From: Candidatus Moraniibacteriota bacterium
GTDB taxonomy: Bacteria > Patescibacteriota > Minisyncoccia > Moranbacterales > UBA1568
Direction: 5' to 3'
Assembly: GCA_043743535.1 (NCBI GenBank)
Contig: JAYTWI010000009.1
Span: 67,407 to 131,406 of the forward strand
Length of the DNA stretch: 64,000 nucleotides
Numbering within the stretch: position 1 is the first letter of the stretch; each line of letters begins with the position of its first letter. This document shows, one piece after another, positions 24,192-61,930 of the stretch. The notes beneath the pieces are model-generated. The model had not been told where the DNA came from, searched no databases, and saw nothing but the letters and a program-made list of their open reading frames with translations. The position numbers were made by a program, and so were the translations under genes.

Positions 24192-26057
24192 ATGCCATTT
24201 AATTTTCAAGGCGGGGTAGATCGAGTCAGGAAACTTTTTTCGGGGGGTGAACAAGCTCACGATCTTCCTTTGATTTCTCTAGAAGAGTATCGAACAAAGT
24301 ATGCCGAGTACTTTTCCCCCGGTAAGTGCTGGATGAGTAGGGATAATAAGGTGAGAATAGAGACGTCGGTACCATGGATGATTAATCATACGCGCCTCGA
24401 TGAGGAAGATGAAAAGGGAGAGCCTAATCTTGCAAAAAGGGAGCTGTTTGCGAGTGAGGATGAATTATGGGCACTGCTCTACGACGGTGGGTACGAACCA
24501 ATCGGTATTTCTATTGCGAAAAATCCTGAGAAAGCGTCTGAGAGTGATAAAGGTGCGGATGGTGAAGCGACTACACCAGAGAGCGGCACCGAAACGCCGG
24601 CGGCCAATGTTGATAGCGTGACAGTCGAGGGGCATCCGGATTCGGGCGAAGATGCTATGCACATTATCGTCGAGGCTGCGAAAATACGAGCTGAAATCGA
24701 AACCTTGTTGAGCCAGGCACGTGAGTTGGTGGTTGCTGATGAACCTAACCCTTTACAGGAACTGCTTGTTCAAATTGATAGCGAAACAACCGAAGCATCA
24801 AAAGAAATCGATCGTTTGTTTACTACTCCTGCTCCAGACAATGTTGAAAAACTCACGGCACTGCTCGAAGAATTACGCCGTAGGCGTGATGGGGCAGAGC
24901 GGGCGCTTCATGCGCTACAGACACTCTCTTCCGATTCTGGAGCAGTAGTCGCGAGCGAAAAGACCCCAGCTGAATCAGGGGGTGGAGATTTTGGCGAGAG
25001 CAGAGGTAGTGAGAAAAAAACTTCCAAAAGAAAAAAAGGGAAGGGTAGTGGCCCTGATGATGGTGGCGAGGTGCCACTGGTTGTTGGGAGTTCACTGAAT
25101 GACGCTTCACTAAGGGTTTTAAGTAGCCTTAAAAGAATGACATCACCAGCCCCCATAGAGCAAACTCTGCTACCAGTGGAGTCTATAGCGGACGAAGGTG
25201 TAAAGAAGGCCACGGAACAAATTTTTTCGGAAGCGCTTGCTAGCGATCGTGCGACCGTATCTACGATAATTGAAGCTATCACGACTCCGGAAGAGTATGC
25301 GGAGTTCCTCCGTACGCTGGAGAAAACTCATTCCAAAGATGGCGATCGTGATATATATCATATCCTCAACTTTGATAACTATGAAGTCGCTTTCCGGCGG
25401 AGTCTTGCACAGGAAGAGCGTTCGGCAGTGATGGCATTGGAGGGGGAGCTTAAAAAACAGCTGTATGATAAGTTTGAAGTTCTTTTCGCGTCGTTTCGTC
25501 AGGAGTTACAAACGTATTATAATAAAGAAAAGGCGAAGATTGACAGCGTGGTAGAGGAAATAGCACTTGATGCTCTCGTTTCATCGTTTACTGATGGCCC
25601 AGAGTCTTTGCAGCGATGGAAAAAGTGTGCGCCCGACATGACCGCAGTCGAACAGTCAAGAGTGATGGAAGAAGCATCTCGACTCTTGGGCGCACTCAAC
25701 CACGACTTGGAAGCACGGAGGGGAGATCTCGCTCGGAGCAAAGAATGGGATGCTTTTCTGGCGCTTCCGAAAGGCGAGCAAATGATAAATTTGTACAAGC
25801 AGACGGTGAAAAGAGTCTGGCAGAGTTTTTTCGATGGGCTTAAAGACGAGGGGCTCATTGATGTTATGACATGGTCAGAAAAGATAAAAGAGTGGGAGAC
25901 TCACTATCTGCCTATGGTGAGGAAACAGATTGTTGGTAGTATTCTTGGTCAATCAGAGGTGACTAGAGAACAAGGGGAAATTATTTTTGAAGAGCTGCTG
26001 CGAGTACTTGACCGAGAACGTGAAGAAAAAAGAGCTAGAAGGGAAAGACCTGTATGA
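24192..26057 (+). CDS. Hypothetical acidic coiled-coil protein (621 aa)
   Basis: Long ORF, no TM, no recognised domain. Its stop overlaps the start of the next gene (ATGA). Confidence 0.5.
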   Translation: MPFNFQGGVDRVRKLFSGGEQAHDLPLISLEEYRTKYAEYFSPGKCWMSRDNKVRIETSVPWMINHTRLDEEDEKGEPNLAKRELFASEDELWALLYDGGYEPIGISIAKNPEKASESDKGADGEATTPESGTETPAANVDSVTVEGHPDSGEDAMHIIVEAAKIRAEIETLLSQARELVVADEPNPLQELLVQIDSETTEASKEIDRLFTTPAPDNVEKLTALLEELRRRRDGAERALHALQTLSSDSGAVVASEKTPAESGGGDFGESRGSEKKTSKRKKGKGSGPDDGGEVPLVVGSSLNDASLRVLSSLKRMTSPAPIEQTLLPVESIADEGVKKATEQIFSEALASDRATVSTIIEAITTPEEYAEFLRTLEKTHSKDGDRDIYHILNFDNYEVAFRRSLAQEERSAVMALEGELKKQLYDKFEVLFASFRQELQTYYNKEKAKIDSVVEEIALDALVSSFTDGPESLQRWKKCAPDMTAVEQSRVMEEASRLLGALNHDLEARRGDLARSKEWDAFLALPKGEQMINLYKQTVKRVWQSFFDGLKDEGLIDVMTWSEKIKEWETHYLPMVRKQIVGSILGQSEVTREQGEIIFEELLRVLDREREEKRARRERPV

Positions 26058-29000
26058 AGAATCACACATTCGAAGGACACGGAGAACAAAATAAAACACC
26101 CGAGCCTATGAGCGAGCGAGCAGCCAAACTGGCAGCGTTAAGAGAGAGGCTATCGCCAATTATTGCGGACGGAATGGCTGTTGATTTAGAAGTGTTCGAT
26201 CAAAAACCGACGGCAGAGGGAGGTTCAGAATCAGGAGCGGTGGAATCGCAAGTGGTGGAACCGGCTGCTACTTCCGCGGTACCTGAGCCAGCTTCATCGC
26301 CAGACCAGGTACTAAAACCACGACGAAGAGCGAAAGCAAGAGTGGAAAAGGGCAAGAAACCAAGAAATCCTTCTGCTTCGACGGCTTCACCAGGAACTTC
26401 GAATGTTCTTGTTTCTGCTACCGTGGAACAGCCCGCATCGTTCAAGGAATCTGCCCCCGAACTTTTGCCCGAAGGTGGTCAGTTGAAATTTACGGATGAA
26501 CGTGGGGTGGACGTGATAGTGGAAAAGCAAGGTGGCTTGTATGGGGTGGATGATAGCAAAGATTTCACCGGATTTATTTATAATGAGGATCAAATAAGGA
26601 CGTTGATCAAAGGATGGACACCGTTAGGAGAAAGTGTCTTGGAGTTAGCTCAAGAAACTGAAAGACAAGAGCAGGAAAAACTGTATGGAGAGGTTGAGAG
26701 GTTGCTTATCCAACAGCAAGAGCAATGGCTGGTAAGAATAGAACAAATTACGAATACTGAAGAGTATAACGCTTTGGTAGATGAAGCAGTGGAAATCGGT
26801 AGGCAATACAAACCGGACCATCCAGGAATAATGAGTTTCCTACTCGGGGAGCCCTTTGAGAGGTTGTTGGCACAGTATCCGCAAGTGAGTACTCAGACAA
26901 AAGAAAAATTGTATTCGCAGGCCCACGACCTACAAGGGAAGATAAATAAAGCTTCCCGAAAAAAAGCCAGTGATTTGCTGATTATGCGAACGGAAGCACC
27001 AACAGCTCATTCAGGCGCTAGCACTTCTGCTCATGACGCATTTCCGCTGGTGAAAACATCGGATCATGGTCATGGTGTATCGCAGAATGAAATTGGAGAA
27101 GTTACGAGCGGTGAGGCAAGAGGAGAAAGACTGGAAAGGTATAGGGCGCAGATAGCGGCCGGCGACTTTGAGGAGGCAGTGATTATCAATCGGGACACTC
27201 CATCAGTAGCCGGGATTGTCAGTCCAGAGGCCGCAGCGGATGCCGGCATTGATTCAAGTGAGCCCTTTGAGACTGATTTTGTCCCGTTTGCAGATGGGGA
27301 GAGAGTGAGCTATCTCACTCTTGACGAGGAAGAAGGAAGCGTGGAAAAAAGAAATGGGAAGTATTTTATCAAGACGGGGGATACTATGCTTGATGCTAAT
27401 GATCCAGGTCTGAGTGAAGTAGGAATGCTGGCAGAAGCTCAAAAAAATAAATGGCGTTTCCAGCGTGAGCTTAACGGAGGAGCGCCTGGCGCCGTCGAGC
27501 TACCAGTATTCAATGACGTCATTAGGAACGCATCGATTGGAGGCGAGAGTAATCCGGCTACTGCGTCCCCTGATGCTGCTCGCGCGGGAGAAAGAAGAGA
27601 ACAGGATTACGACACGGTACGCGAAGGCGATGTGTGGGTGCTACGCGATGCTTCCGGCCAAGAATTACGACGGGTAACAGTGAATCAATTTATTAAATAT
27701 AGTGGAACAGCACTACAGGTCAATTTTTCTGACAGCACAAAGCAACTTCCCCCGGTAGAGGATGACTTCGGATACCTTGATGTGGATTTGACCCGCGTTG
27801 ATACGGAAATGGTTTTGGATAGGTTTCTTCAGATGCTGCGTGCTGATGGCTTTGTGTTGGAAAGTGCTGGTACGGGAGCAGGAACAACTGAAGTGGCGCC
27901 GATTATGGGTGAGCGACGAGGGATGGATGCTCCAGATGGCCGAAGGGCTGAAGTACCGGTTGAAAATCCCGACGTGGCAGTGAAGATTGAGGAAGAACAT
28001 ACTGTGCCTACTACACTCGAGGAGAAAATTGCCCAGTTGCGGCAAGAAAAAGATGAGTTTCGTTATAAATTTGCAGAAAGTGATTTCAAAAATAGCACCA
28101 TCTTGGGGAAATTAGGCTCCATCTTTCGTGAATTGGACAAGAATAAGAAAGATTATGATACGGACACATGGAAAAGGTATTATCTGGGGGCACTAGAGCA
28201 ACTGAAGGATGCTGAGCTGGAACAAATAAAAAAATCGGGGCTCACTGGAGAGATCTTGAATGATGCTTTGGCTGGGATGCTTGAGTATTACAAGATCAAC
28301 GAACCATTGGGATTGATCAAGGCTCGTACCCGCGTACGCTTGGAAACAAAAATAGCAGACAAAGAATGGCCAGAACAGATAATGGATCGGATGGAAAATA
28401 TTGGACGGGAGTACAACAAGCTCAATTGGAAGACAAAAGTTCTCATTGGGGGAGTATTTATTGGCGGCGCGTTCACTTTGGGGTCTACTGGGGCGGCGGG
28501 GGCAGCCATTGGCGGCGGGGCACTTTTCCTTCGGAAAATAGTGACCAGCATTGGAGGGGGTCTTTCTTTGGATGCCACACTCGAAAAAGTAGAAGACTGG
28601 TTTGAGAAAAAGAGCGATACGGATAACAAAGAAATTAAAAAGCAAATGGCAAGAATGGATGATATTGACGACTGGGATAAATTCGAAGGAGTTAATGTTT
28701 TACTTGATCAGGAGATTGCTTCACTTGATGGAAAGTTACAGAAACATAAATCTCATGCCACCAAACGGAAACTCATTGCTTTCGGAACGAGTATCGGATT
28801 TTCATTCGGGAGTTATGCTTTCGGCCATGGCGCCCCGAGTGCTGGTGGAGGAGCGGCGCGTACAACGGTAGCGGCAGCGGCAGCGGAGGCGAAGCGAGCC
28901 GCCATACCATCTGGTGCCGCGGCTTCTGGAGTAGCCCGCTCTATTGAGCAAGCGGCTTCGGCTCCCAGTGGGGCAGCCTCGGCTGGGGTGGGGCAGGCAC

Positions 29001-30208
29001 CAATGCCGAGTGGGGCAGCTTCGGCTGCGATGGAGCAGGCCACTCCTCCTCAGGCTAATGCGGCGGCTTCAGCGGTAGCGGTAGCTGAGCGCATCGCTGC
29101 TCCAGTACCAGGTGTCGATACTACTCCTCCAGTAGGAGCGGCTGTGAAGATAGCGGCGGAGACAGCGGCCGCGATCCCGGGGAAAGATCTGTTGATCAAT
29201 TATTCGGTGACGCCAGCTGATGCGCGTAAGGGTTTGTGGGGCATATTGGAAAAGCGTTTGCCTGCTGATATGTCAGAAGCAGAGCGCCCACGCGCTATTC
29301 AGTCGCTCTCCAACGCTATTGCGCGAAAACTGCAGGAAATGGACCCGGAAGATTGGAAAAAAGTCGGTTTCCCTTCAGGTGAAGTCGGTGACATTCGCGC
29401 TGGGGGCACTATTGACTTTGCAAGATTGCTCAATCCAGATGATGTCCAAAAGGTACTCAATGGAAATTTCATTGCCGCGCCGCCAGAAATACCGTACCCT
29501 ACTTCTTCTATCGTAGAGCCGGCGGTTGATGTGGCTCTGACGGTTGGCGTCGATGCCAGTGGGCTAGCAAAACAAGTAGTACAAGAAGTGGTGAGTGACA
29601 AATTATCTGAAGTAGCGGCCGTAGCAGCAAAGATTCCTGATGTCTCCTCGGGTGAAAAGGCGGCTATCTTCAGTAGCTTTCAAGAACCGTCAGTACCACC
29701 AAAGGGCATGCCGATTGAGGGTGTTCACCCATCTACGGTTGTCACAACCTATGTGACGGAACGAGCCACGCTATTGCCTCGGGAGGGGATGATTCGTGCG
29801 CGCTATGGAGTGCGGGCGATACAGTATTTCCAGGAACATCCTGGAGAATGGGGAGGAGTGAGAGAATCCGCCACTAGGATGCGCGATAGCCTCTTCTTTG
29901 ATCCGAATGCTTCATATAATCCGGAGCGGTATGCCAGGTTAGGTCAGACGACGTTGTCATCGGTGCTGCGCGATGCCGAAGCCTTCAGACAGAATCCGCT
30001 TGCTAACTTCACTTATGATCGCACTACCGACCCACTGAGCATTCGTGCCATACGCCAGGTGAATGATTTTGTGGAAATTGCTAAGCGGACTTTTGGTGTG
30101 GAAGGGGCGATGGTTGCGGCAGGAGAATCGATTAACAACTATGTGCTTCGGATGACGATGAAAGGTGTGGCGGAGGGGCGACCTATCAGATTTTTTTATC
30201 GATCATAA
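26054..30208 (+). CDS. Giant hypothetical protein (1384 aa) with central Gly-zipper hydrophobic segment and Ala/Ser/Pro-rich repeat region
   Basis: ORF translationally coupled to the upstream gene. VLIGGVFIGGAFTLGSTGAAGAAIGGGALFL plus three PSGAAS-type repeats at ~28900-29040. Confidence 0.55.
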   Translation: MKNHTFEGHGEQNKTPEPMSERAAKLAALRERLSPIIADGMAVDLEVFDQKPTAEGGSESGAVESQVVEPAATSAVPEPASSPDQVLKPRRRAKARVEKGKKPRNPSASTASPGTSNVLVSATVEQPASFKESAPELLPEGGQLKFTDERGVDVIVEKQGGLYGVDDSKDFTGFIYNEDQIRTLIKGWTPLGESVLELAQETERQEQEKLYGEVERLLIQQQEQWLVRIEQITNTEEYNALVDEAVEIGRQYKPDHPGIMSFLLGEPFERLLAQYPQVSTQTKEKLYSQAHDLQGKINKASRKKASDLLIMRTEAPTAHSGASTSAHDAFPLVKTSDHGHGVSQNEIGEVTSGEARGERLERYRAQIAAGDFEEAVIINRDTPSVAGIVSPEAAADAGIDSSEPFETDFVPFADGERVSYLTLDEEEGSVEKRNGKYFIKTGDTMLDANDPGLSEVGMLAEAQKNKWRFQRELNGGAPGAVELPVFNDVIRNASIGGESNPATASPDAARAGERREQDYDTVREGDVWVLRDASGQELRRVTVNQFIKYSGTALQVNFSDSTKQLPPVEDDFGYLDVDLTRVDTEMVLDRFLQMLRADGFVLESAGTGAGTTEVAPIMGERRGMDAPDGRRAEVPVENPDVAVKIEEEHTVPTTLEEKIAQLRQEKDEFRYKFAESDFKNSTILGKLGSIFRELDKNKKDYDTDTWKRYYLGALEQLKDAELEQIKKSGLTGEILNDALAGMLEYYKINEPLGLIKARTRVRLETKIADKEWPEQIMDRMENIGREYNKLNWKTKVLIGGVFIGGAFTLGSTGAAGAAIGGGALFLRKIVTSIGGGLSLDATLEKVEDWFEKKSDTDNKEIKKQMARMDDIDDWDKFEGVNVLLDQEIASLDGKLQKHKSHATKRKLIAFGTSIGFSFGSYAFGHGAPSAGGGAARTTVAAAAAEAKRAAIPSGAAASGVARSIEQAASAPSGAASAGVGQAPMPSGAASAAMEQATPPQANAAASAVAVAERIAAPVPGVDTTPPVGAAVKIAAETAAAIPGKDLLINYSVTPADARKGLWGILEKRLPADMSEAERPRAIQSLSNAIARKLQEMDPEDWKKVGFPSGEVGDIRAGGTIDFARLLNPDDVQKVLNGNFIAAPPEIPYPTSSIVEPAVDVALTVGVDASGLAKQVVQEVVSDKLSEVAAVAAKIPDVSSGEKAAIFSSFQEPSVPPKGMPIEGVHPSTVVTTYVTERATLLPREGMIRARYGVRAIQYFQEHPGEWGGVRESATRMRDSLFFDPNASYNPERYARLGQTTLSSVLRDAEAFRQNPLANFTYDRTTDPLSIRAIRQVNDFVEIAKRTFGVEGAMVAAGESINNYVLRMTMKGVAEGRPIRFFYRS

Positions 30209-31015: not shown

Positions 31016-33517
31016 ATGCAAAACAGTTTTGATTTGAATACTCTGCTGGTGCCGTTGGTGTATCTCTTCGCTACCGCATCTTTGATGAGCGGCGTGTATT
31101 TGGTCGTCCGTAGCTTTTTACGTTTTCGATACCAGGTCAACCAGTCGCTCAATATGGATTTGGAGGTGATCAAGGTGATGCGTAAGAAGAGCCCAGAGGG
31201 ACAGCAGCAGGCGGCTGATGCTTGGCGTGAAGAAATTTTTGCCATGGAACAACTCCTTTCTTCCTTGGCGGTTTTGAAGCCAACTGGCAACTTTCTCAAG
31301 AAGCTTTTTTTCGAGCCGCCGAGCATCGTTTTCGAGATCACGAACCCTTCGTCGAGCGAAGAAATATTTTTTTACCTCTCTATCCCCAAGCGCCACCGCG
31401 AAAGCGCGGAGAAGCAGATCCACAGTTTCTTCCCGCATGCTGTTATCGAACAGATTCCTGATTACACGATCTTTTCCCCAGGCAGTTTTACGGCAGTGGC
31501 GCTTCTGGAATTGAAATCCACTCACGCCTTGCCGCTCCGTACTTACCGCACGCTTGATATCGATCCGCTCAATGAAATTTCCAATGCCCTGAGTAAATTG
31601 GAGACAGAGGCCGAGGGCGCTGCTATCCAGATATTGCTTTCTCATACTGATAGTCAGTGGCGTTCAGAAGGGCGCGTCTTGGCCCAAAAGATGCAGGAAG
31701 GGAAACGCTTGAAGGATGCGCAGGGGAGTGGCACGTTTGCCAAAGACGTAGGAAAAGGAGTGGGCAAAGAAATGGCCTCGATGCTGATGCGCACACCGAA
31801 TACTGGGAAGAGAACTGATGCAGAAGAAAAAAAGGTGGTATCACTGACCCCTGAAGAACAGGAGTTGGTGAAATCAATCGACAGCAAAGCGAGCAAAGCT
31901 GCTTTCCGAGTCAATATCCGGCTGTTGTCTTCAGCTGCTACACAGGAGCGAGCTGATGCTATCTTGGCTCATATGGAGAACGCTTTTGGGCAATTTGAAA
32001 ATCCTGAAGTGAATAGTTTTCGGGTCAAGAAACGTATCAAAGACAAGACGGCTGTTTATGACTATATCTTTCGCAATGTGGACGACGAGCAGGCAATGAT
32101 TTTGAACGTGGAGGAGTTGGCTAGTATTTTCCATTTTCCGATCTCTACCACCGAGACACCCAAGATCAAGTGGTTGAAAGCAGGAGCAGCTCCTCCACCG
32201 GTAAATATTCCGAAGGAAGGCATTCTCCTTGGTTACAATGATTATCGTGGCGTGAAGAGTGATATTCGTATCACTGATAATGACCGCCGCCGCCATATGT
32301 ATGTTATCGGGCAGACAGGTGTCGGTAAGTCCAATTACCTCCAGGAAATGGCCAAGAAGGACGCTCGGGCTGGCAAGGGCTTCTGTTTCATCGATCCGCA
32401 CGGCGATGCCATCGAGGATATTTTGACCGCCATCCCCAAAGAGCGAGCCGAAGATGTCATCATTTTCGATCCAGCTGATGTGGCGCGACCGATTGGTATC
32501 AATATGCTCGAATTCGATCCGGCTCATCCGGAACAAAAGACTTTCGTCATCAATGAAATGATTGGTATCTTCGACCAGCTCTACGATATGAAAGCCACCG
32601 GCGGTCCGATGTTCGAACAGTATATGCGAAACGCCATGCTCCTCATTATGGAGCACCCAGAGAGCGGTTCGACACTCATGGAAATTCCCAAAGTCTTGGC
32701 TGATGAAGAGTTCCGCCGCTACAAACTCTCCAAATGCACCAACCCCATCGTGCGCGACTTTTGGTTGAAGGAGGCAGAGAAAGCTGGGGGCGAGGCTTCG
32801 CTCGCCAATATGGTGCCGTACATCACGTCCAAACTCACCACTTTCATTAGTAACGACATGATGCGTCCTATTATCGCCCAGCAGAAGAGCACGCTTAATT
32901 TCCGTGAGATTATGGACGGGGGCAAGATTCTTCTCATCAATCTTTCCAAGGGCAAGATCGGTGAAATTAATGCTCGTTTGCTCGGTATGGTGATCGTCGG
33001 AAAAATCCTGATGGCCGGTCTATCGCGGGTGGATATCCCCGAGGCCGAGCGCAGAGATTTCTATCTCTACCTCGATGAATTTCAAAACGTTACTACAATT
33101 TCCATTGCTCAGATTCTCTCAGAGGCTCGCAAGTACAAGTTGGTGCTCATCTTGGCTCACCAGTTCATCGCCCAACTCAAGGAAGAAATTTCCAAGGCGG
33201 TCTTTGGCAACGTCGGCTCACTCACTGCTTTTCGGGTGGGACCGGAGGATGCTGATTTCCTGGAAAAGCAGTTTGCCCCGGTCTTTACGGCTAACGACTT
33301 GGTCAATGTCGATAATTATAACTGTTTCGTGCGTCTTCTTATGAATAACGAACTGACCAAGCCTTTCAATATGAAAACCTTTCCGCCCAGCCATGGTGAT
33401 CAGGAAGTGGCCAACGCCCTAAAAGAGCTCTCTCGCTTGCGCTACGGGCGCGATGCCTCGATCGTCAATCGAGAAATTATGTCTCGGATGCAACTAGCCG
33501 AAAAAGCAGTGGTCTAG
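31016..33517 (+). CDS. VirB4/TraC/CagE-like type IV secretion ATPase (FtsK-HerA superfamily)
   Basis: One N-terminal TM, a ~400 aa N-domain, then RRHMYVIGQTGVGKS Walker A, YLYLDEFQNV Walker B and RKYKLVLILAHQFIAQL, an R-finger/Q motif typical of VirB4/VirD4 ATPases. 833 aa fits VirB4 better than VirD4. Confidence 0.6.
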   Translation: MQNSFDLNTLLVPLVYLFATASLMSGVYLVVRSFLRFRYQVNQSLNMDLEVIKVMRKKSPEGQQQAADAWREEIFAMEQLLSSLAVLKPTGNFLKKLFFEPPSIVFEITNPSSSEEIFFYLSIPKRHRESAEKQIHSFFPHAVIEQIPDYTIFSPGSFTAVALLELKSTHALPLRTYRTLDIDPLNEISNALSKLETEAEGAAIQILLSHTDSQWRSEGRVLAQKMQEGKRLKDAQGSGTFAKDVGKGVGKEMASMLMRTPNTGKRTDAEEKKVVSLTPEEQELVKSIDSKASKAAFRVNIRLLSSAATQERADAILAHMENAFGQFENPEVNSFRVKKRIKDKTAVYDYIFRNVDDEQAMILNVEELASIFHFPISTTETPKIKWLKAGAAPPPVNIPKEGILLGYNDYRGVKSDIRITDNDRRRHMYVIGQTGVGKSNYLQEMAKKDARAGKGFCFIDPHGDAIEDILTAIPKERAEDVIIFDPADVARPIGINMLEFDPAHPEQKTFVINEMIGIFDQLYDMKATGGPMFEQYMRNAMLLIMEHPESGSTLMEIPKVLADEEFRRYKLSKCTNPIVRDFWLKEAEKAGGEASLANMVPYITSKLTTFISNDMMRPIIAQQKSTLNFREIMDGGKILLINLSKGKIGEINARLLGMVIVGKILMAGLSRVDIPEAERRDFYLYLDEFQNVTTISIAQILSEARKYKLVLILAHQFIAQLKEEISKAVFGNVGSLTAFRVGPEDADFLEKQFAPVFTANDLVNVDNYNCFVRLLMNNELTKPFNMKTFPPSHGDQEVANALKELSRLRYGRDASIVNREIMSRMQLAEKAVV

Positions 33518-33591
33518 GGAAGAAAATGGACTGCGAAACGAAAGTTTGCTTGCGTTTCTGAGCAGAGAGATTGCTTTTTGGTAAATACTTT

Positions 33592-35952
33592 TTATTTCAG
33601 CTTGAAGGAGAAGAGCTCATGGTCAGTTGTCAAGAAAACTTCATTCCCTGATTCATTGACCGTGAAGGCAGTGGCAGTAGCCAATTTTTCATGGAAATAC
33701 TGAGTGACGATTTGACCCGCTTGATCCCAGGAAAGCAGTCGCTTGTTGTTTTGGTCGAGAGCATAGATATTTGCTAAACCCGAATGGGTGTAGAGGGCGG
33801 TGAGCGAAAGCATAGCTGTGGGGGATTCGAGGGTGTTTTGTCTGTGGCCACGAAAGAATCCATCGATGACAGGTAGTTCAGGTGCCGAAAGGTAGATGGT
33901 GTCACTCACTGTCATTTTGGTGTTATCAGTTATGGCTACGGTATTTTTCAGCCACTTGGTGCCTTCGCCGAAGCCACCCTCTGCCCGCGGAAAGCGATAA
34001 ATTTGATCAGTACTGTCGTCGAGCACGTAGAGATAGGTGAGGTAGGCACCGATGCTTCGTACCCGCACCCCTGCTGGAAGGTTGAGATTGTTTTCGACAA
34101 AGGAGTGATTGATAGGACTAAAGGCAAAGAGACGTTTGTTTTCAGTGTAGATGAAGAGGAGATGCAAATCATCCATAACGGCTACCTGGGTAGCAGAATT
34201 ATTTTCCGGCAGCGGAAAAGTCTGATTGTTCTCGATTTCGATAATGCTTTTCTTTGTCACCAAGTATGGGGCATTCGCTAAGATGACTGGCGTGACGATA
34301 TTTTCTTCTGTAGTGGTGATATGAAGGACATCACCCACGATTTGGGCATTTTTTTCGTTGTTCGGGGCTATGACGGTGACCGCTACTGTTTCTGTGTTTA
34401 CTTGCTGCACTGGTTGTTTGTTTACGGTTTCCTTACTGGTCTGTGATTTTCCAGAAAAATAAAAAATGACGAAGGCGAGAAGGATGAACACGCCGAGGCT
34501 GCCGAAGAACGTTTTGAGGAGGATAAGAAAGCGCGAAGGAGCTTTCTCCTGGACCTGTCTATTTTGGTAGAAACGGGCTATTTTCTCTTTGATAAAGGAG
34601 GGGATTTCTTCTTCTGGCTCAAAAGCGATTTCTTTTGTCGTGGCTAAAGTGCTACTTGTTAGCTTTACTGTTTGCTCTTTAGTTATTGTGGTGGGCAATC
34701 CTGCACGAGAAATTTCGTCGATAATAAGTGCTTGCTCCGGAATAACAGGAGGCACTATTTTTGATGTGATTGCTAATACTTTCGCTTGTTTCAGGGATCT
34801 TTTCTCAGCTGCTTTCGCCACAACATGTTTCCAGAAACGTTTTACTACACGCACCGATTTGCGAGCGACGGTGCGGCCGCTTTGCCCCAATGCTAGGAGA
34901 GTGAGACTCATTTGCTTTCTCTCTTTACGCCACCACTTGTCTTGGGCAGTGGCTATGGTACGGAGGAAGTGACCTGTTTCCAAGAGGCCGAGCTTAAAGT
35001 GTTCAAAAAAAGGATGGGCACCTGGTGTTTGTGGTGTGTCGCCCTGGACATAAATATGACCAGTTTTCGAGTCGATGTATTCTGGGAGGGGGGATTCTTT
35101 TGCTTCGACTTGCTTAGTTGTTTCTTCCTGGCTGTCTAGGCGTGATTTCGGTGAAAAGGCTGATTGGCTAAAAACGTTACTCACTATGGCATTCATTGAT
35201 TCTTCGGATTTTTTTGTGGGCTTCTTTTCTGGTAGCTGAGCACTACCTTCTTTGAGGTCAATGACTAGAGTGCCGGACATATCGAGCTCATTGACGAGGG
35301 CAGTCTTTAGGAACTGGGCGAAACGCTCGCGGCCGATGCGCTGGGCGTTTTTTTCCAAATTGGTTAAAGAAAAGAGAGCAAAAAGTTCTGGTGAACTTAA
35401 AAGCACCTGATCCTCAGCATTTAATCGGCCGCTCGAAACTTCGACAAAGGTCTTGATGGGATGCTGCGAAGATTCATCTGAGGCGAGACCTTCGCTAATA
35501 TCAGCCATCGTGCCATTGCGAAAAAGGATGATGCGAGCGTGGCCAGTAACGGAAAAATGAAGATTATTTTTTTCGAGTACCCCTAATGCGCCGTGGAATT
35601 TTCCGAGCCAGGCGATGTTGCCATGCTTCACCAGTTCGGTTAGTGCCAAATTGATTTTGTGGAGAGCTGCTTCAAAGCTTTCGATGGCTCCGCGATGGGA
35701 GTTGCTAAAATATTCTTTTTTAGCTACGGAGGCGAGGAAATTAACGATGTAGGCCGAGTCATCACTCTTTTCATCCACCTCGAAAACGCCGAGGAGCGTT
35801 CCTAGTCCTTGTTTGGAAATATTTTCGCCGGTAACGCTAAAGGTCCGTATAAATGGCTCTACGGAACGCCCATTCGTGACAAGGATCTCTGTCACCACCT
35901 TCTCCAATTCCGGCAGGGGTTTTATTTTTTCTTGATTTTTTCTTTCGGACAT
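33592..35952 (-). CDS. Membrane protein: N-terminal cytoplasmic PP2C-like (possibly catalytically degenerate) domain, one TM, C-terminal extracytoplasmic domain
   Basis: LGVFEV..., FHGALGVLEKNNLHFSVTGHARIILFRNG and MSGTLVIDL resemble PP2C motifs, but the DGHGG metal motif is absent. TM at FLILLKTFFGSLGVFILLAFVIFYF. Confidence 0.4.
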   Translation of the reverse strand: MSERKNQEKIKPLPELEKVVTEILVTNGRSVEPFIRTFSVTGENISKQGLGTLLGVFEVDEKSDDSAYIVNFLASVAKKEYFSNSHRGAIESFEAALHKINLALTELVKHGNIAWLGKFHGALGVLEKNNLHFSVTGHARIILFRNGTMADISEGLASDESSQHPIKTFVEVSSGRLNAEDQVLLSSPELFALFSLTNLEKNAQRIGRERFAQFLKTALVNELDMSGTLVIDLKEGSAQLPEKKPTKKSEESMNAIVSNVFSQSAFSPKSRLDSQEETTKQVEAKESPLPEYIDSKTGHIYVQGDTPQTPGAHPFFEHFKLGLLETGHFLRTIATAQDKWWRKERKQMSLTLLALGQSGRTVARKSVRVVKRFWKHVVAKAAEKRSLKQAKVLAITSKIVPPVIPEQALIIDEISRAGLPTTITKEQTVKLTSSTLATTKEIAFEPEEEIPSFIKEKIARFYQNRQVQEKAPSRFLILLKTFFGSLGVFILLAFVIFYFSGKSQTSKETVNKQPVQQVNTETVAVTVIAPNNEKNAQIVGDVLHITTTEENIVTPVILANAPYLVTKKSIIEIENNQTFPLPENNSATQVAVMDDLHLLFIYTENKRLFAFSPINHSFVENNLNLPAGVRVRSIGAYLTYLYVLDDSTDQIYRFPRAEGGFGEGTKWLKNTVAITDNTKMTVSDTIYLSAPELPVIDGFFRGHRQNTLESPTAMLSLTALYTHSGLANIYALDQNNKRLLSWDQAGQIVTQYFHEKLATATAFTVNESGNEVFLTTDHELFSFKLK

Positions 35953-39842: not shown

Positions 39843-40451
39843 CTAGCGGTAAGCGCTGACGCGGGCAGAATACTTTTTCAGATTTTGTAGCTGATGGTCG
39901 TTTAAGGTCTTTGATTTCTCGATGGCTTGATGGATCAAATCCTTGGAGAAATCAATTGAGGTCTTGGAATTCACTGATCCATGAAAGGGTACGTGCTTAC
40001 GTAGGTAATCCTCGATATAGACTTTGTGTTCCGAGGTCAATGAGGAGTCGGTATTCTTTTCGAGGTAGTGAGCGAGTGCGCGGCGGGCCAAATGAGTAGT
40101 ACCGTTCCCGCGTTCTGCTTGTTCCACGAAAGAGGCTTCGGTCTCATGACTAAGTTCCGGAGTGACGACGACGCCAGCTTTCATTGATGCAGGAGTTGTT
40201 TCCTGTGACTTCCCCTGGTCAGGAGTAGTTGTCTCGGCATCCTGTTTCCCGAGCGTGTCTAAGAGTGTATTCGTATCATCAGAGAGCGATTGTTGCGAGC
40301 GCTGGGAGTATGAATAAATCCCGAGGGCGATAGCCGCAACAATGAAGATGCTAACGATAATGCGGAGATTCTCTTGCACCCACATTTTGGCTTGATTAAC
40401 GGAAGTATCTTCTTCTTCGAACATCGGATCCTGGCTTTCCATAAAGTTCAC
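39843..40451 (-). CDS. Hypothetical membrane-anchored protein (N-in, one TM, Thr/Ser/acidic linker)
   Basis: ORF with TM IIVSIFIVAAIALGIYSY. Confidence 0.45.
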   Translation of the reverse strand: MNFMESQDPMFEEEDTSVNQAKMWVQENLRIIVSIFIVAAIALGIYSYSQRSQQSLSDDTNTLLDTLGKQDAETTTPDQGKSQETTPASMKAGVVVTPELSHETEASFVEQAERGNGTTHLARRALAHYLEKNTDSSLTSEHKVYIEDYLRKHVPFHGSVNSKTSIDFSKDLIHQAIEKSKTLNDHQLQNLKKYSARVSAYR

Positions 40452-41055
40452 CTCTCTTTCTAGTGTTAGACAAATTTTGAAAGTGCTGCTTGCGTTGAAG
40501 CTTTGGCTCTTGGAAGTTTTGAGATTCCAACAGCTGGATCGACCTCCTGTTTCTTCATAGTAAGACCTGAAAAATCGCTTGTCAACTGGACAAAGTAACG
40601 CCTTTTCAGCCTAATGCCAATTATTTCTTGAGGTTCGCTCATCGCACCCGTTACCACCTACTTCACAGAGAATAAAAAGGAAAAAAATTTTCGAAACGTG
40701 CTCCTTCAAATGTTTGTGAAAAAACATAATTTGTCGAGCGGGGAGTCGGCATGAGAGTCGGGATTTGAAAGGTGTCAACGTCATATGAAATGAGAGAAGC
40801 AAATGAATACTAAAAAATATTTTATGTGGTGAAATTTTTTGGTTGCATTTTTTGTTTCGACTCTTGACAGTATTTTTTTCTCTTTGCATTTTTCAAAAAA
40901 AGTGTATAATAAATGTAGACAGAAATAATTTCTGTGTCACACACAAAAAAAGAATTGTGTTGTGCAAAATAAAAAAATAAATCCTTACGTCTTTCTCTGG
41001 TGAGTGAACGTACTCGTAAGAAGAGGGGCGAAGGTTTGAAGGGAGGTGAAACATT

Positions 41056-41160
41056 ATGGCAGCTAAGAAAAAAGCAGCTAAGAAAGTAGCAAAGAAGAAA
41101 GTAGCTAAGAAGAAGACCGCCAAGAAAGTTACCAAGAAGAAGACCGCCAAGCGCAAATAA
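41056..41160 (+). CDS. 34-aa Lys/Ala-rich peptide (MAAKKKAAKKVAKKKVAKKKTAKKVTKKKTAKRK)
   Basis: Strong SD GGGAGGTG 8 nt upstream of the ATG. Candidate promoter TTGCAT-15-TGTATAAT at ~40884-40913. Absent from the ORF track because it is under 60 aa. Confidence 0.5.
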   Translation: MAAKKKAAKKVAKKKVAKKKTAKKVTKKKTAKRK

Positions 41161-41248
41161 TTTTGCCACAAAGTCTTTTTGTGAAATACAAACAAAAAAT
41201 TCCCACTGCCTGTCGGCGGAGGGATTTTTTGTTACATGAAAAGGCCTT

Positions 41249-42157
41249 CTATTTTTTGATTATTGCCATGATAATGCGCTTTTTTCCAGCCAAATCAGGT
41301 ATGACTGACACGCTAGCGGTTGGAAAAGTATCCACTATGTATGCTCTCATTGGTGTCGCTTGTTCGGGGCTGATTTCGAAGAGGACGATGATCTCTTGAG
41401 GGAGTTCGCCATGGTGCACGCTTAGTTCTCGGCAACAGCGGAGATAATGATCGAGGCCATGCTCGCCGCTTATGAGAGCGCTCACCGGCTCATAGCGGAT
41501 ATCGGCGGCTGTTTTCGCGTAGAGTTTTTCTGAAACATAAGGAAGATTGGCCAAGAGGATAAGTATGTCGGCTTGCGAAAAGAGGGATACATAAGGAGCA
41601 ATGAGTGATCCATGACGGAAGACGATGGGCGGGAGTGGTGCGAGCCTCCGGGCATTTTTTTTTGCCACACGTAGTGCTCGGGTAGACAGGTCACTACCAT
41701 AAAAGGCAATGCGCTTCAGAGAAAGTGTTGTCGATGCGAGTGTCTTGGCAAGTGCAATGATGATGTTGCCACTACCCGTGCCGATATCGGCGCAGATAAT
41801 TTTCTGATGTGTATCAGTAGACAACCGATTTGTTAGAAGGACACTTACTTGTTCAACCATGATTTCTGTTTCCGGTCTCGGGATGAGTGTATCGTTTGTT
41901 ACGTGAAAGTCGAAGCCATAGAATTCCTTGTGGCCAGTGATGTAGGCGATTGGTTCATGCTGTATACGTCTGGTAGCGTACTGTTCGAATCGGCGCCTGG
42001 GAGCACTCTTTATGACGTATTCAGGGTGAGCGAGCAAGAATACCTTTTCTTGCCCGGTAGCGTGAGCTAACAGGATAAAAAAATCTTCCGGCAAGAGGAG
42101 CGGAAGGTGGAATTTCGCGAGGGCGGAAACGGTTGTCATAGCGAGAAGGGGTGACAT
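41249..42157 (-). CDS. prmC: Release-factor glutamine N5-methyltransferase PrmC/HemK
   Basis: ADIGTGSGNIIIAL SAM motif and NLPYV (NPPY-type) motif. Lies downstream of prfA in the same orientation. Confidence 0.8.
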   Translation of the reverse strand: MSPLLAMTTVSALAKFHLPLLLPEDFFILLAHATGQEKVFLLAHPEYVIKSAPRRRFEQYATRRIQHEPIAYITGHKEFYGFDFHVTNDTLIPRPETEIMVEQVSVLLTNRLSTDTHQKIICADIGTGSGNIIIALAKTLASTTLSLKRIAFYGSDLSTRALRVAKKNARRLAPLPPIVFRHGSLIAPYVSLFSQADILILLANLPYVSEKLYAKTAADIRYEPVSALISGEHGLDHYLRCCRELSVHHGELPQEIIVLFEISPEQATPMRAYIVDTFPTASVSVIPDLAGKKRIIMAIIKK

Positions 42158-43239: not shown

Positions 43240-43279
43240 AGGTCAAAAAGTCATGGTTCAAAATGTGAAATTGAAGAAT

Positions 43280-43358
43280 AACAGGTATTCACCTGATTTT
43301 ACCAGCACTCGCTCGGAAACAAAAGTGCACTTTTGTTTCACTCGCTTCGTTTGGTAAT
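43280..43358 (+). repeat. Structured repeat family copy A (~80 nt)
   Basis: aaCAGGTATTcACCTGATTTTACCAGCACTCGCTCGGAAACAAAAGTGCACTTTTGTTTCACTCGCTTCGTTTGGTAAT. Near-identical copies at 51232-51310 (reverse complement) and 60941-61021. Confidence 0.85.
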
Positions 43359-43472
43359 AGATACATTGTTAGTATACTCCATTGCAAAAGAAAAACCCCA
43401 TTGGTTTGGGATTTTTCAGTGTTTTTTCGAGATAAAAATGGACAGAGAAAAAAACCACCAGTCGTGAAGGTG

Positions 43473-51157: not shown

Positions 51158-51231
51158 AATTTTCTCGCGTGTATCTTGTCGCAGTTCTCTTTTCTTGCTA
51201 CACTCGCCAGTATGTTTCTTCCCGGCAGTTA

Positions 51232-51310
51232 ATTACCAAACGAAGTGAGTGAAATGAAAGTAAACTTTCGTTTCTGAGCGAGTGCTGGTAAAATCAGGTA
51301 AATACCTGTT
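51232..51310 (-). repeat. Structured repeat family copy B (reverse orientation)
   Basis: The reverse complement reads AACAGGTATTTACCTGATTTTACCAGCACTCGCTCAGAAACGAAAGTTTACTTTCATTTCACTCACTTCGTTTGGTAAT. Confidence 0.85.
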
Positions 51311-51320
51311 ATTTCAGACT

Positions 51321-60356: not shown

Positions 60357-60902
60357 TTGCGCAAGAATAGGTGTGTTTACTCAGAATGTCCACTGTCTAT
60401 GGTTTGGTTCAACAGTTTCATCTCCGCTCTGCACATTCCAAACAATCTGGCGGGGGACTTGTCTCTCTTTTTGTTTTTTATTGCCCTTAGTCTAGTTTTT
60501 GGTTTTGTTTTCGGACGGTGGAAGTTGGTCAATATTCTGATCAATGTCTATATCGCCCTGGCTCTGGCTAATATTTTGCCTAAAGAACTCTTGGCCTTCT
60601 CGATATATGCTAAGGCTGTTGTTTTTGTCACGCTGCTCGTTTTTTTGACTGCGGTTGATGATCGTCTGTTCGATGTCCATATTACCAACGCTGGCACTGA
60701 CTTTTTTTGGCGTCTTTTTGTGATGAGCATCATGGTGACCGGCATGGTGTTGAGCTCCGCCCTTTCCTTGGTGCCCAAGGCGTTTGCCTTAAGCTATATT
60801 TCCGCGGCTGCCTATGGCTACTTTGCTTCCCCCTTCGCCCTGATTTTCTGGATGACTATTCCACTTTTACTCCTTCTCTTTATCAACAATCGATTGAAGT
60901 AG
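60357..60902 (+). CDS. Hypothetical integral membrane protein (~5 TM)
   Basis: Hydrophobic ORF. Confidence 0.4.
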   Translation: MRKNRCVYSECPLSMVWFNSFISALHIPNNLAGDLSLFLFFIALSLVFGFVFGRWKLVNILINVYIALALANILPKELLAFSIYAKAVVFVTLLVFLTAVDDRLFDVHITNAGTDFFWRLFVMSIMVTGMVLSSALSLVPKAFALSYISAAAYGYFASPFALIFWMTIPLLLLLFINNRLK

Positions 60903-60940
60903 GACAGGTCAGCATTGTTCGTGGATGACTGACAAAAAAT

Positions 60941-61021
60941 AATAGGTATTTATCTGATTTTACCAGCACTCGCTTGCGGAAACGGAAGTAAACTTTCGTT
61001 TCGCTCACTTCGTTTGGTAAT
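60941..61021 (+). repeat. Structured repeat family copy C
   Basis: AATAGGTATTTATCTGATTTTACCAGCACTCGCTTGCGGAAACGGAAGTAAACTTTCGTTTCGCTCACTTCGTTTGGTAAT. Confidence 0.85.
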
Positions 61022-61101
61022 GAAAAGCCGCAGGGAGAACATGTCTCGCTGCGGTTTGTTGGTGCTTGACGCGTGCTTGTTAGCGTGGGTTATGACGAGG
61101 C

Positions 61102-61539
61102 CTACTGCCTGATGATTCCCATACGCCCCCCCTTTTTTTTGGAAATTATCCGGATTATTGGTCGGCACGCCCGAGGGATGCTGAGGAGCGTCAACAGCAG
61201 GCCAGATGCCAGCCAGAGTGGCCACCAGCCGAATGAATGGCTCTTTTCGCGTGTCAAGACTAAGAACAGTAAAGCAATCATTGGCGGTAATACGAACCAG
61301 AAGGTCAATCCCAGTCCGTGTTTGTGCCACTTGAAACGGTTGATTGCGAGAATGGCCACGATGACCAGATAGAGCACAATCATCAGGATTAGAGCGCTAT
61401 TACCACTGGTGGCGGTCAGCTGGCCATGCTTGCGAGCAAGTGAGAGGTACCACTCGCCAGCCCCGAGACAGAGAACCATGATGGCTGCTGCTCCGATAGC
61501 AGCCATCATGATGCGGAGGAGAGATTTAAAGAACTGCAT
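61102..61539 (-). CDS. Hypothetical small membrane protein
   Basis: Hydrophobic ORF. AAGGAAG SD-like motif before the M at 61539. Confidence 0.35.
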   Translation of the reverse strand: MQFFKSLLRIMMAAIGAAAIMVLCLGAGEWYLSLARKHGQLTATSGNSALILMIVLYLVIVAILAINRFKWHKHGLGLTFWFVLPPMIALLFLVLTREKSHSFGWWPLWLASGLLLTLLSIPRACRPIIRIISKKKGGRMGIIRQ

Positions 61540-61827
61540 ACTGATCTTCCTTTGGTTTACCAAACGGCTTGTTTGGGGTTGTCCGTATTATACAACCCTC
61601 GTCCTGATTGTAAATGGCCGACGGAGGCTCAAGCGGGCATCATCGCTGTCCGTAATCATGACGGCGAAGAACAGCAGGCCGAGCAGAAAGAGGGGGAGAC
61701 GCGCCAGAACCAATAGCAATCCGTGCTGCAAACAGAAAAAAATATAGTATACGTTGGCTTGTTTCCGTCTTTATTGACAGTTCGTTTTTGTTGCGTGGTG
61801 CATCAGACCAGGGAGTCCTAGGCGGCC

Positions 61828-61855
61828 TTGACACGCTCTTAATACTTGCTATACT
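61828..61855 (+). promoter_or_regulatory. Putative rRNA operon promoter (-35 TTGACA, 16 bp spacer, -10 TATACT)
   Basis: cTTGACAcgctcttaatacttgcTATACTggg, ~290 nt upstream of 16S. Confidence 0.5.
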
Positions 61856-61930
61856 GGGTAAGCAATCTAGAAGCCATGTGGTCATGGGTTGCTTTTGTTT
61901 CTATCTGTTTTTCTAAACAGGGTGAACCGT

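Follow-up and report, generated by a model that had tools for sequence, protein, structure and literature searches.

A probable mobile hairpin-repeat in the intergenic DNA of Moranbacteria

In this study we describe a family of short structured repeats, the hairpin-repeat, which lies between genes in a stretch of 64,000 nucleotides of Candidatus Moraniibacteriota DNA (the 64-kb window). Two of its copies, A and B, were inserted after the window's lineage split from that of a congeneric relative, and the family gains new sites, loses old copies to decay and keeps up its structure. We put the probability at about 0.7 that the hairpin-repeat is a low-copy, non-coding, non-autonomous MITE/REP-like mobile repeat of Moranbacteria (CPR) which has inserted recently between housekeeping genes. 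The family appears to be previously undescribed and is of an ordinary kind; in the searchable literature we found no description of MITE- or REP-like repeats in CPR/Patescibacteria. An earlier note on this DNA had proposed a mobile or structural repeat of this type, and the proposal is borne out by the absence of A and B at the orthologous sites of relatives and by the other places at which other genomes carry their copies.

CPR/Patescibacteria have very small, densely packed genomes, nearly all of them known through metagenomes alone. The window contains a 16S rRNA gene, five tRNA genes, rpmE-prfA-prmC, rpsB-tsf and a ribosomal-protein/rpoA cluster, and the closest homologues of its RF1 and polyprenyl synthetase are annotated Candidatus Moranbacteria or Moraniibacteriota. 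The latter enzyme has a 100% identical counterpart on an NCBI contig of 132 kb.

Results

Copies in the window and their anatomy

The window holds three intact copies of the hairpin-repeat (A, B and C), a degenerate fourth and possibly a decayed fifth. The three copies had been located in the earlier note, and its positions, quoted modules and central hairpins all proved correct when we re-inspected the sequence. It had also suggested a search with a covariance model; run on the window and on regions of relatives, such a search found copy 4 and further diverged copies. The model used here, R1, was built from eight copies.

43274-43361, + strand: copy A (covariance model 108.6 bits), with the orientation of the earlier note on +; the rpmE terminator lies on one side and the prfA start (43239, - strand) on the other
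43282-43295: small hairpin of copy A, CAGGT-attc-ACCTG
43299-43304 and 43352-43357: outer-stem arms of copy A, TTACCA and TGGTAA
43306-43313 and 43339-43346: direct repeats of copy A, CACTCGCT
43316-43339: central hairpin of copy A, GAAACAAAAGTgcACTTTTGTTTC
43296-43304, - strand: TGGTAAAAT in copy A, read in the direction of prfA; similar to an extended -10 (TGnTATAAT) that faces outward to the downstream gene
51229-51316, - strand: copy B (110.2 bits), with the earlier orientation on -; central hairpin GAAACGAAAGTttACTTTCATTTC; the insert stops 10 nt short of the ATG of the polyprenyl synthetase gene (51321)
51232-51310: inserted segment of copy B as given by the empty site, 79 nt, ATTACC...CCTGTT on the + strand, followed by ATT
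51286-51294, + strand: TGGTAAAAT in copy B
60935-61024, + strand: copy C (102.7 bits), central hairpin GAAACGGAAGTaaACTTTCGTTTC; between the convergent genes for a membrane protein (60357-60902, +) and a 153-aa membrane-like ORF (61102-61563, -)
60957-60965, - strand: TGGTAAAAT in copy C
33515-33599, - strand: copy 4, degenerate (R1, E 0.009); between the convergent genes for a VirD4/TraG-like protein (31016-33517, +) and a 786-aa ORF (33592-35952, -)
40672-40734, - strand: possible fifth copy, heavily decayed (E ~5, alone not significant)

A repeat search of the window returned the copies as 82-nt arms of 90% identity. The 16-mer TTTACCAGCACTCGCT on the left and the 18-mer CTCRCTTCGTTTGGTAAT on the right occur exactly three times each in the window; with up to three mismatches, chance would give 0.38 and 0.14 matches, respectively, and the observed counts were reached in none of 100 shuffles. 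In copy 4 the central hairpin and the left end are still recognisable, while the outer stem and the right end have decayed. Its score with the later model R2 is circular because copy 4 sat in the R2 training alignment.

The hairpin-repeat is built of a small hairpin (CRGGTA..TACCYG) and an outer stem (TTACCA/TGGTAA) within which lies a 10-bp, AT-rich central hairpin, and on either side of the latter stands a direct repeat, the two being conserved and not complementary to each other (GCGAGTG when read in the direction of the genes). The short form is 79-88 nt long and the long form ~175 nt; the end motifs are AACRGGTATT... at one side and ...TTCGTTTGGTAAT at the other. The small palindrome reported earlier is perfect in B but not in A and C, the latter reading TAGGTAttTATCTG and including two G·T pairs. 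The reported inverted repeat, TTACCA/TGGTAA, is also present, although on the left it is not the true terminus and lies 22 nt inside the element. Conservation extends a few bases past the limits first drawn (AATAAC on the left, RAA on the right), and the true termini of the insert (AACAGGTA... / ...TTGGTAAT) are not inverted copies of each other. Copy C has two extra nucleotides (TG) inserted ahead of the central hairpin, both of its hairpins contain G·T pairs, and a further hairpin, CCGCAG...CTGCGG (61028-61060), immediately adjoins it.

A coding peptide was considered as well. One frame is open and ends TGG TAA in several copies, without a conserved start; since the hairpin changes are compensatory and copy C is frameshifted by 2 nt, a conserved reading frame was rejected. 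At two sites, 1053-1055 of the metagenome contig L009 and 33592-33594 of the window, the stop codon of a neighbour gene falls within the conserved A-rich left end or on its border (AAATAAC / TGAAATAA), and insertion may have reshaped the last codons of these genes.

Two unrelated repeats of the window were recorded on the way. A 60-nt direct repeat, 98% identical (1199-1258 and 2127-2186), surrounds a ~930-bp segment whose 152-aa ORF (1504-1962, +) matched nothing in Pfam. The 3' end of ruvX runs into the first repeat, and a Logan contig from another sample (L024, SRR23617269), with proteins identical to those of the window, ends at the last ruvX base, inside this repeat. The segment looks like an inserted cassette with an att-like duplication. 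A 35-nt unit (CCCAGTGGGGCAGCCTCGGCTGGGGTGGGGCAGGC) occurs twice, 42 nt apart and 86% identical, at 28964-29040 within a 1384-aa ORF (26054-30208).

Filled and empty sites

The contigs L018, L019 and L030 represent the congeneric relative, whose RF1 is 96% and whose DNA is 88-90% identical to that of the window. At both positions where it could be compared, those of A and B, this relative is empty. Copy A is absent upstream of prfA in L018 and L019, where the sequences flanking the gap, the rpmE terminator and the prfA leader, can each be aligned; the flanks are indel-rich and this junction is not base-exact. Copy B is absent in L030, which comes from the same sample as L018, and here the flanks are almost identical and the gap is exactly 79 nt. 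The window reads CAGTTA[ATTACC...CCTGTT]ATTTCAG and L030 reads CAGTTAATTTCGG: the empty site has a single ATT, and the filled one has it at either junction. The more distant relatives L020, L022 and L023 are empty at both the A and B sites, and L021 is empty at A, the sole site that it covers. As the distant relatives are also empty, absence is the ancestral state, and the window's lineage has acquired A and B recently.

The reverse is also seen, the window being empty where others are filled. Its fba-gap spacer is 23 nt long and without the copy that the MAG L003 carries there, and its 16S leader is without a subfamily copy of ~80 nt present in L022 and L025, with the same ATT redundancy at the junction. 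At both base-exact junctions (B against L030, and the L022/L025 16S leader against the window) the insert is ~79-80 nt long and starts with an ATT that also comes after it, and the empty site has ATT once. Is this the footprint of a target-site duplication, which the earlier note had advised looking for? Two readings fit the 3-nt redundancy: a preferred target was duplicated over 3 bp, or the element has ATT as its own first bases and went in beside an ATT; an unambiguous duplication was not found at these junctions. GACAGT stands just upstream in both empty sites and was considered as a fixed target motif; no other copy shares it, and we treat it as a coincidence. The variable hairpin seen beside the right end of some copies was rejected as a part of the element, the A and B insertions including none, and such hairpins are most likely the terminators of upstream genes.

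Copy B (51232-51310) and a copy in L025 (9878-9965) sit in the same exonuclease-polyprenyl synthetase spacer of distant genomes, in the same orientation and at different offsets. With closer relatives empty, this arrangement points to independent insertions, that is, to a hot spot or a selected position.

Copies in other genomes

Eleven further copies were found in related MAGs and metagenome contigs. A strict two-anchor pattern, scanned over 185,579 reference genomes with one genome per GTDB species, gave a single match per genome in just three of them, the MAGs L002, L003 and L004; the pattern held both ends within 48 nt by design and is uninformative on longer elements. An 18-mer scan of JGI metagenomes (241 million records), which constrained the left end only, gave 13 matches, of which 11 were chance and two were real (L009 and L015), both with the right end nearby. 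For diverged copies, syntenic regions were fetched by way of RF1 and polyprenyl-synthetase homologues and then searched with the model, with the following results.

L022 19079-19168: L022a, diverged copy, long form
L025 9878-9965: L025a, diverged copy
L022 20602-20688: L022b, 16S-leader subfamily
L025 20388-20483: L025b, 16S-leader subfamily
L029 530-652: long form (E 0.0014), downstream of prmC

The remaining copies lie upstream of atpD (L002), between fba and gap (L003), between the genes for PBP2 and greA (L004), beside a tRNA-Pro gene (L015) and at the 3' end of a rhodanese gene (L009). The long forms L022a and L029 (~175 nt) are extended leftwards of the core by additional hairpin modules (CCAGGGCAAGCCCTGG, AAACGAACtgatGTTCGTTT, CCGCGGCAAGCCGCGG), and what appeared to be a 31-nt 'insertion' in L004 is one such module. 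By comparison of the two, the short form looks like the long form after a deletion between two GGTATT repeats.

The copies do not cluster by genome: pairwise identities are 90% for A-B, 86% for A-C, 94% for B-L015 and 95% for L009-L002. Copies are thus 86-95% alike across hosts whose proteins are merely 60-80% identical, and such likeness requires either purifying selection on the whole element, that is, a function, or recent horizontal spread.

Traces of a much older copy may lie downstream of prmC, where six of the seven relatives scanned gave weak-to-moderate matches in the same region and orientation (L021 6468-6581, E 0.03-0.04; L020, L018, L019 and L022, E 1.3-5.6). It appears to be one orthologous copy of great age, which L029 retains in fairly good shape and of which L021 keeps a half-decayed version; the window and the other relatives show barely a trace. 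The region itself is unusual: downstream of prmC, 800-900 nt without a long ORF (40451-41249 in the window) recur in all relatives examined. The stretch holds a short lysine-rich ORF, with 27-nt repeats (AAGAAAGTAGC...) at 41080-41148, together with the decayed element trace, and matched no Rfam family at threshold.

One labelling matter concerns the sequence from which L003 and L025 both derive (CAYLJX010000003.1). It is labelled 'uncultured Bdellovibrionales', yet it has the complete Moranbacteria gene order in common with the window (prmC-prfA-rpmE / rpsB-tsf / exo-PPS-uppS-infA-rpsM...), with proteins 66% identical, and the label is probably wrong.

Searches for a mobilising enzyme and for known families gave no match. 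Among the ~45 ORFs of the 64-kb window scanned with Pfam there was no transposase, integrase or HUH protein, and no autonomous element with hairpin-repeat ends was seen in the window or at the real metagenome matches. Rfam 15 gave no gathering-threshold match at any copy, and permissive scans of the short and long forms returned nothing credible: the best sub-threshold matches over copy A or the long form, with E >1, were the lactis-plasmid RNA (17.9 bits, cut-off 70) and isrK (12.5 bits, cut-off 50), and the one lower E-value in the stretch scanned, that of ctRNA_p42d (E 0.05, 19.6 bits, cut-off 50), belongs to a match on the rpmE terminator region, 3' of copy A. Phages and plasmids gave no blastn match, and three scans of viral contigs yielded chance matches in coding-like sequence only.

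Secondary structure and covariation

All three copies fold into the same three helices, the small hairpin, the outer stem and the central hairpin. As RNA, each copy folds better than its own shuffles on either strand (z -2.5 to -4.9). As single-stranded DNA, A and B do so clearly (z -3.6 to -4.3) and C is marginal (z -1.8, matched by 9 of 200 shuffles).

The claim that stem substitutions are compensated, and that a structure is conserved, was to fall if additional copies showed no covariation. The additional copies do covary: across 14 copies aligned to the model, 14 of the 22 pairs have changed on both sides and 92% of cells are paired, values reached by none of 500 column shuffles, while slid partners pair at 35-53%. 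The alignment was fitted to the covariance model, which favours the structure, and the clearest cases are visible by eye. Changes on both sides come from all three helices: pair 2 of the small hairpin goes from A-T to G-C, the central hairpins of A and L003 have G-C replaced by A-T, and the loop-closing pair of L022a and L025a changes from T-A to C-G. In the 16S-leader subfamily of L022 and L025 the fold is kept with different stem sequences, the outer stem and small hairpin having been wholly replaced by other complementary ones. The loops are better conserved than the stems.

The wobble compensation suggested earlier fared less well. Changes on both sides are seen, but with no strand specificity: mismatches that read G·U on the strand of the earlier note number 12, and those that do so on the opposite strand, which appear as A·C on the former, number 15. 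With the two types about equally frequent, there is no sign of RNA-level selection on one transcribed strand. A further observation concerns the central hairpin and loop of copy B (51251-51274), which are the exact reverse complement of L015 2542-2565, with loop TT against AA and the single mismatch included, while the flanking modules are co-linear. This suggests that the hairpin was inverted by template switching. Template switching is also able to transfer a substitution between the two arms, so that some of the compensation may be mechanistic and not selected.

Orientation, promoter-like and terminator-like features

The orientation relative to flanking genes had been described as variable. 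Both strands are indeed used, but most copies are co-directional with adjacent transcription, by ~6-7 to 1 among the informative cases, a bias that is suggestive and not significant. The co-directional strand is the reverse complement of the orientation in the earlier note. On this strand the copies stand 10-105 nt upstream of the starts of prfA (A), the polyprenyl synthetase gene (B and L025a), atpD (L002), gap (L003), the tRNA-Pro gene (L015), a membrane-protein gene (L022a) and the 16S rRNA gene (L022b and L025b), and in L029 and L021 the strand points at the Lys-rich small gene. L004 alone is clearly antisense, in a tandem spacer. Copy C, copy 4 and the L009 copy lie between convergent genes, right after the hairpin and T-run of the co-directional gene. 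With regard to replication, no strand bias was seen among the four copies of the window: A and C are on + and B and copy 4 on -, and GC skew is uniformly positive throughout.

The motif TGGTAAAAT, whose role as a promoter element is putative, doubles as the 3' arm of the outer stem. It is exact in 8 of 8 copies of alignment A2, and altered in L022a (CGGTAAAAT); L025a (CGGTAAAAA) and the 16S-leader subfamily have lost it. A textbook promoter of the rRNA operon, TTGACA-N17-TATACT, is present at ~61829-61857 in the window and ~20181-20209 in L025, followed by a conserved leader hairpin (CACAATTTTTTGTGG), and Moranbacteria therefore seem to follow sigma-70 consensus rules. This promoter stands upstream of the 16S-leader copies, which, judging from that position, must be transcribed.

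The element had been set apart from terminators for lack of a T-run. This holds for the strand read at the time, but on the opposite strand a T-rich tail (GTTATTTY) follows the small hairpin, and in A and B the 5-bp small hairpin with TTATTTC/TTATTCT passes a lax terminator scan. The terminator-like hairpin is weak, 5-6 bp and AT-rich, and copies of the element also occur inside the 16S leader.

Discussion

The filled and empty sites of A and B, the scattered locations of the other copies and the decayed copies together describe an element that moves, and the hairpin-repeat is best compared with the bacterial MITEs and with the structured intergenic repeats of the BOX/ERIC/BIME kind, like which it behaves. 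The reading with the best support is a non-autonomous mobile repeat in which the nested hairpins would be the structure recognised in cis. How might it move? We hypothesize that an enzyme whose gene lies elsewhere in the genome mobilises it in trans. This enzyme would recognise the folded hairpins, most simply as single-stranded DNA, which would explain both the equal tolerance of G·T and A·C mismatches and the conservation of the whole element across genera. Insertion would take place into AT-rich intergenic DNA beside AAT/ATT, with a 3-bp duplication or none. The copies that persist would be mostly those co-directional with a neighbour, and so would be co-transcribed as hairpins of a 5'-UTR, a leader or a 3'-UTR. 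Modest effects on expression are conceivable, through RNA stability, weak termination or the putative outward TGGTAAAAT motif.

Like the Correia/NEMIS elements of Neisseria and the RUP elements of Streptococcus pneumoniae, the hairpin-repeat is shorter than 200 nt, non-coding, intergenic and multi-copy, is polymorphic for insertion among close relatives, folds into hairpins with short inverted repeats, inserts at AT-rich sites and would be co-transcribed with its neighbours. An outward promoter motif has been reported for Correia elements, and TGGTAAAAT is a possible parallel. The differences are that our inverted repeats are only 6-7 bp, the left one 22 nt inside, that the junction has a 3-nt ATT redundancy and no related autonomous IS was found among the window ORFs by Pfam, and that there are few copies per genome, compared with tens to hundreds, with the whole sequence and not the ends alone conserved across genera. 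Held to a strict definition of a MITE, the hairpin-repeat is small, non-coding, multi-copy and insertion-polymorphic but lacks terminal inverted repeats at its very ends. With the BOX elements of Streptococcus and the BIME/REP mosaics of enterobacteria, families whose mobilising mechanism was unknown or came to light only later, it shares modular hairpin boxes of variable number, here in short, intermediate (L004) and long (L022a and L029) forms, as well as intergenic position and a stable fold; there is no sequence similarity. REPs proper are imperfect palindromes of 20-40 nt that begin with a GTAG-type head, run to hundreds of copies and are accompanied by a RAYT gene, and none of these traits was seen here: the unit is an 80-nt nested two-hairpin structure with 1-3 strict matches per genome, and the window has no Y1/RAYT domain. 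A third comparison is with the PATEs derived from IS200/IS605 (HUH Y1 transposases). In the hairpin-repeat, too, hairpins are the conserved feature, compatible with single-stranded DNA recognition, and true terminal inverted repeats are missing; its clean junctions would be compatible with duplication-free insertion next to AAT. However, its two hairpins do not resemble each other as those at IS608-type ends do, the left hairpin begins 2-3 nt from the end, no replication-strand bias was seen (n=4) and the window has no TnpA. Membership in the MITEs or REPs in the strict sense is accordingly not established, and the hairpin-repeat has some PATE traits only.

Two features sit badly with a purely selfish, drifting MITE, namely the likeness of cross-genus copies to one consensus (86-95%) and the very low copy number; both would be compatible with selection acting on the element as a whole, or with its having spread horizontally in recent times. 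Could the hairpin-repeat be a mobile structured module under selection across Moranbacteria genera? It would then either represent a new class of protein-binding leader or UTR RNAs spread by transposition, or mark a mobilisation system of CPR bacteria, as yet undescribed, that recognises hairpins. The conserved nested fold with its GCGAG loop, the 16S-leader subfamily and the insertions in the same orientation at the same gene speak for such a module, which we nevertheless hold to be unlikely. Somewhat harder to credit is a functional cis-acting RNA read from the co-directional strand, as a 5' leader or intercistronic element that binds a protein through the GCGAG internal loop or that stabilises or processes the transcript, with mobility secondary or with copies retained by selection. 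It would account for the strand that faces the next gene start in most copies, with L004 the sole clear antisense case, for loops more conserved than stems in helices that all covary, for copies within 86-95% of one consensus across genera, for the preserved fold of the L022 and L025 16S-leader copies on different stems and for the presence of B and L025a in the same exo-PPS spacer of distant genomes. However, the genes served would be functionally unrelated, close relatives do without the element at the same genes, and decayed copies exist; equal numbers of G·U- and A·C-type mismatches are unexpected for an RNA read from one strand, the orientation count (~6-7 to 1) is small and not significant, and Rfam has no match.

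The outward extended -10 invites the thought of a portable promoter, where TGGTAAAAT would start transcription in the small hairpin and drive the downstream gene. The motif is 27-105 nt ahead of downstream start codons and exact in all eight A2 copies, the sigma-70-type consensus is valid in the clade (TTGACA-N17-TATACT in the window and L025) and orientation is biased to gene starts. Yet the motif is the 3' arm of the outer stem, so that structure alone explains its conservation, and it is altered or lost in L022a, L025a and the 16S-leader subfamily. No -35 matches, a consensus scan called no promoter in this direction in A, B or C, the 16S-leader copies already lie downstream of a real promoter, and C, L009 and copy 4 face gene ends; we regard the idea as very improbable. 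More doubtful still are a family of trans-acting sRNA genes and intrinsic terminators duplicated together with their genes. Size, stable fold and multiple copies would suit the former, and in A and B the small hairpin plus TTATTTY on the co-directional strand was flagged as terminator-like; several copies also adjoin a variable hairpin and T-run. Against both, there is no conserved promoter, the flanks are unrelated up to the element edge, and the elements insert alone, without neighbouring genes. The stem has merely 5-6 AT-rich base pairs, the variable hairpins belong to upstream genes and none came with the copy A insertion, and a terminator would do harm inside the rRNA leader, where copies are found.

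The probable mobile repeat thus remains our preferred reading, and on present evidence it reveals no new kind of biological system. What it does mean is that mobile non-coding DNA persists in the reduced genomes of CPR bacteria. Its insertion polymorphism is a marker at strain level, and the hairpin-repeat may explain assembly breaks and variable spacer lengths beside core genes. It also raises the tractable questions of which enzyme moves the element and of whether its copies alter the expression of genes such as prfA, the polyprenyl synthetase gene or the rRNA operon.
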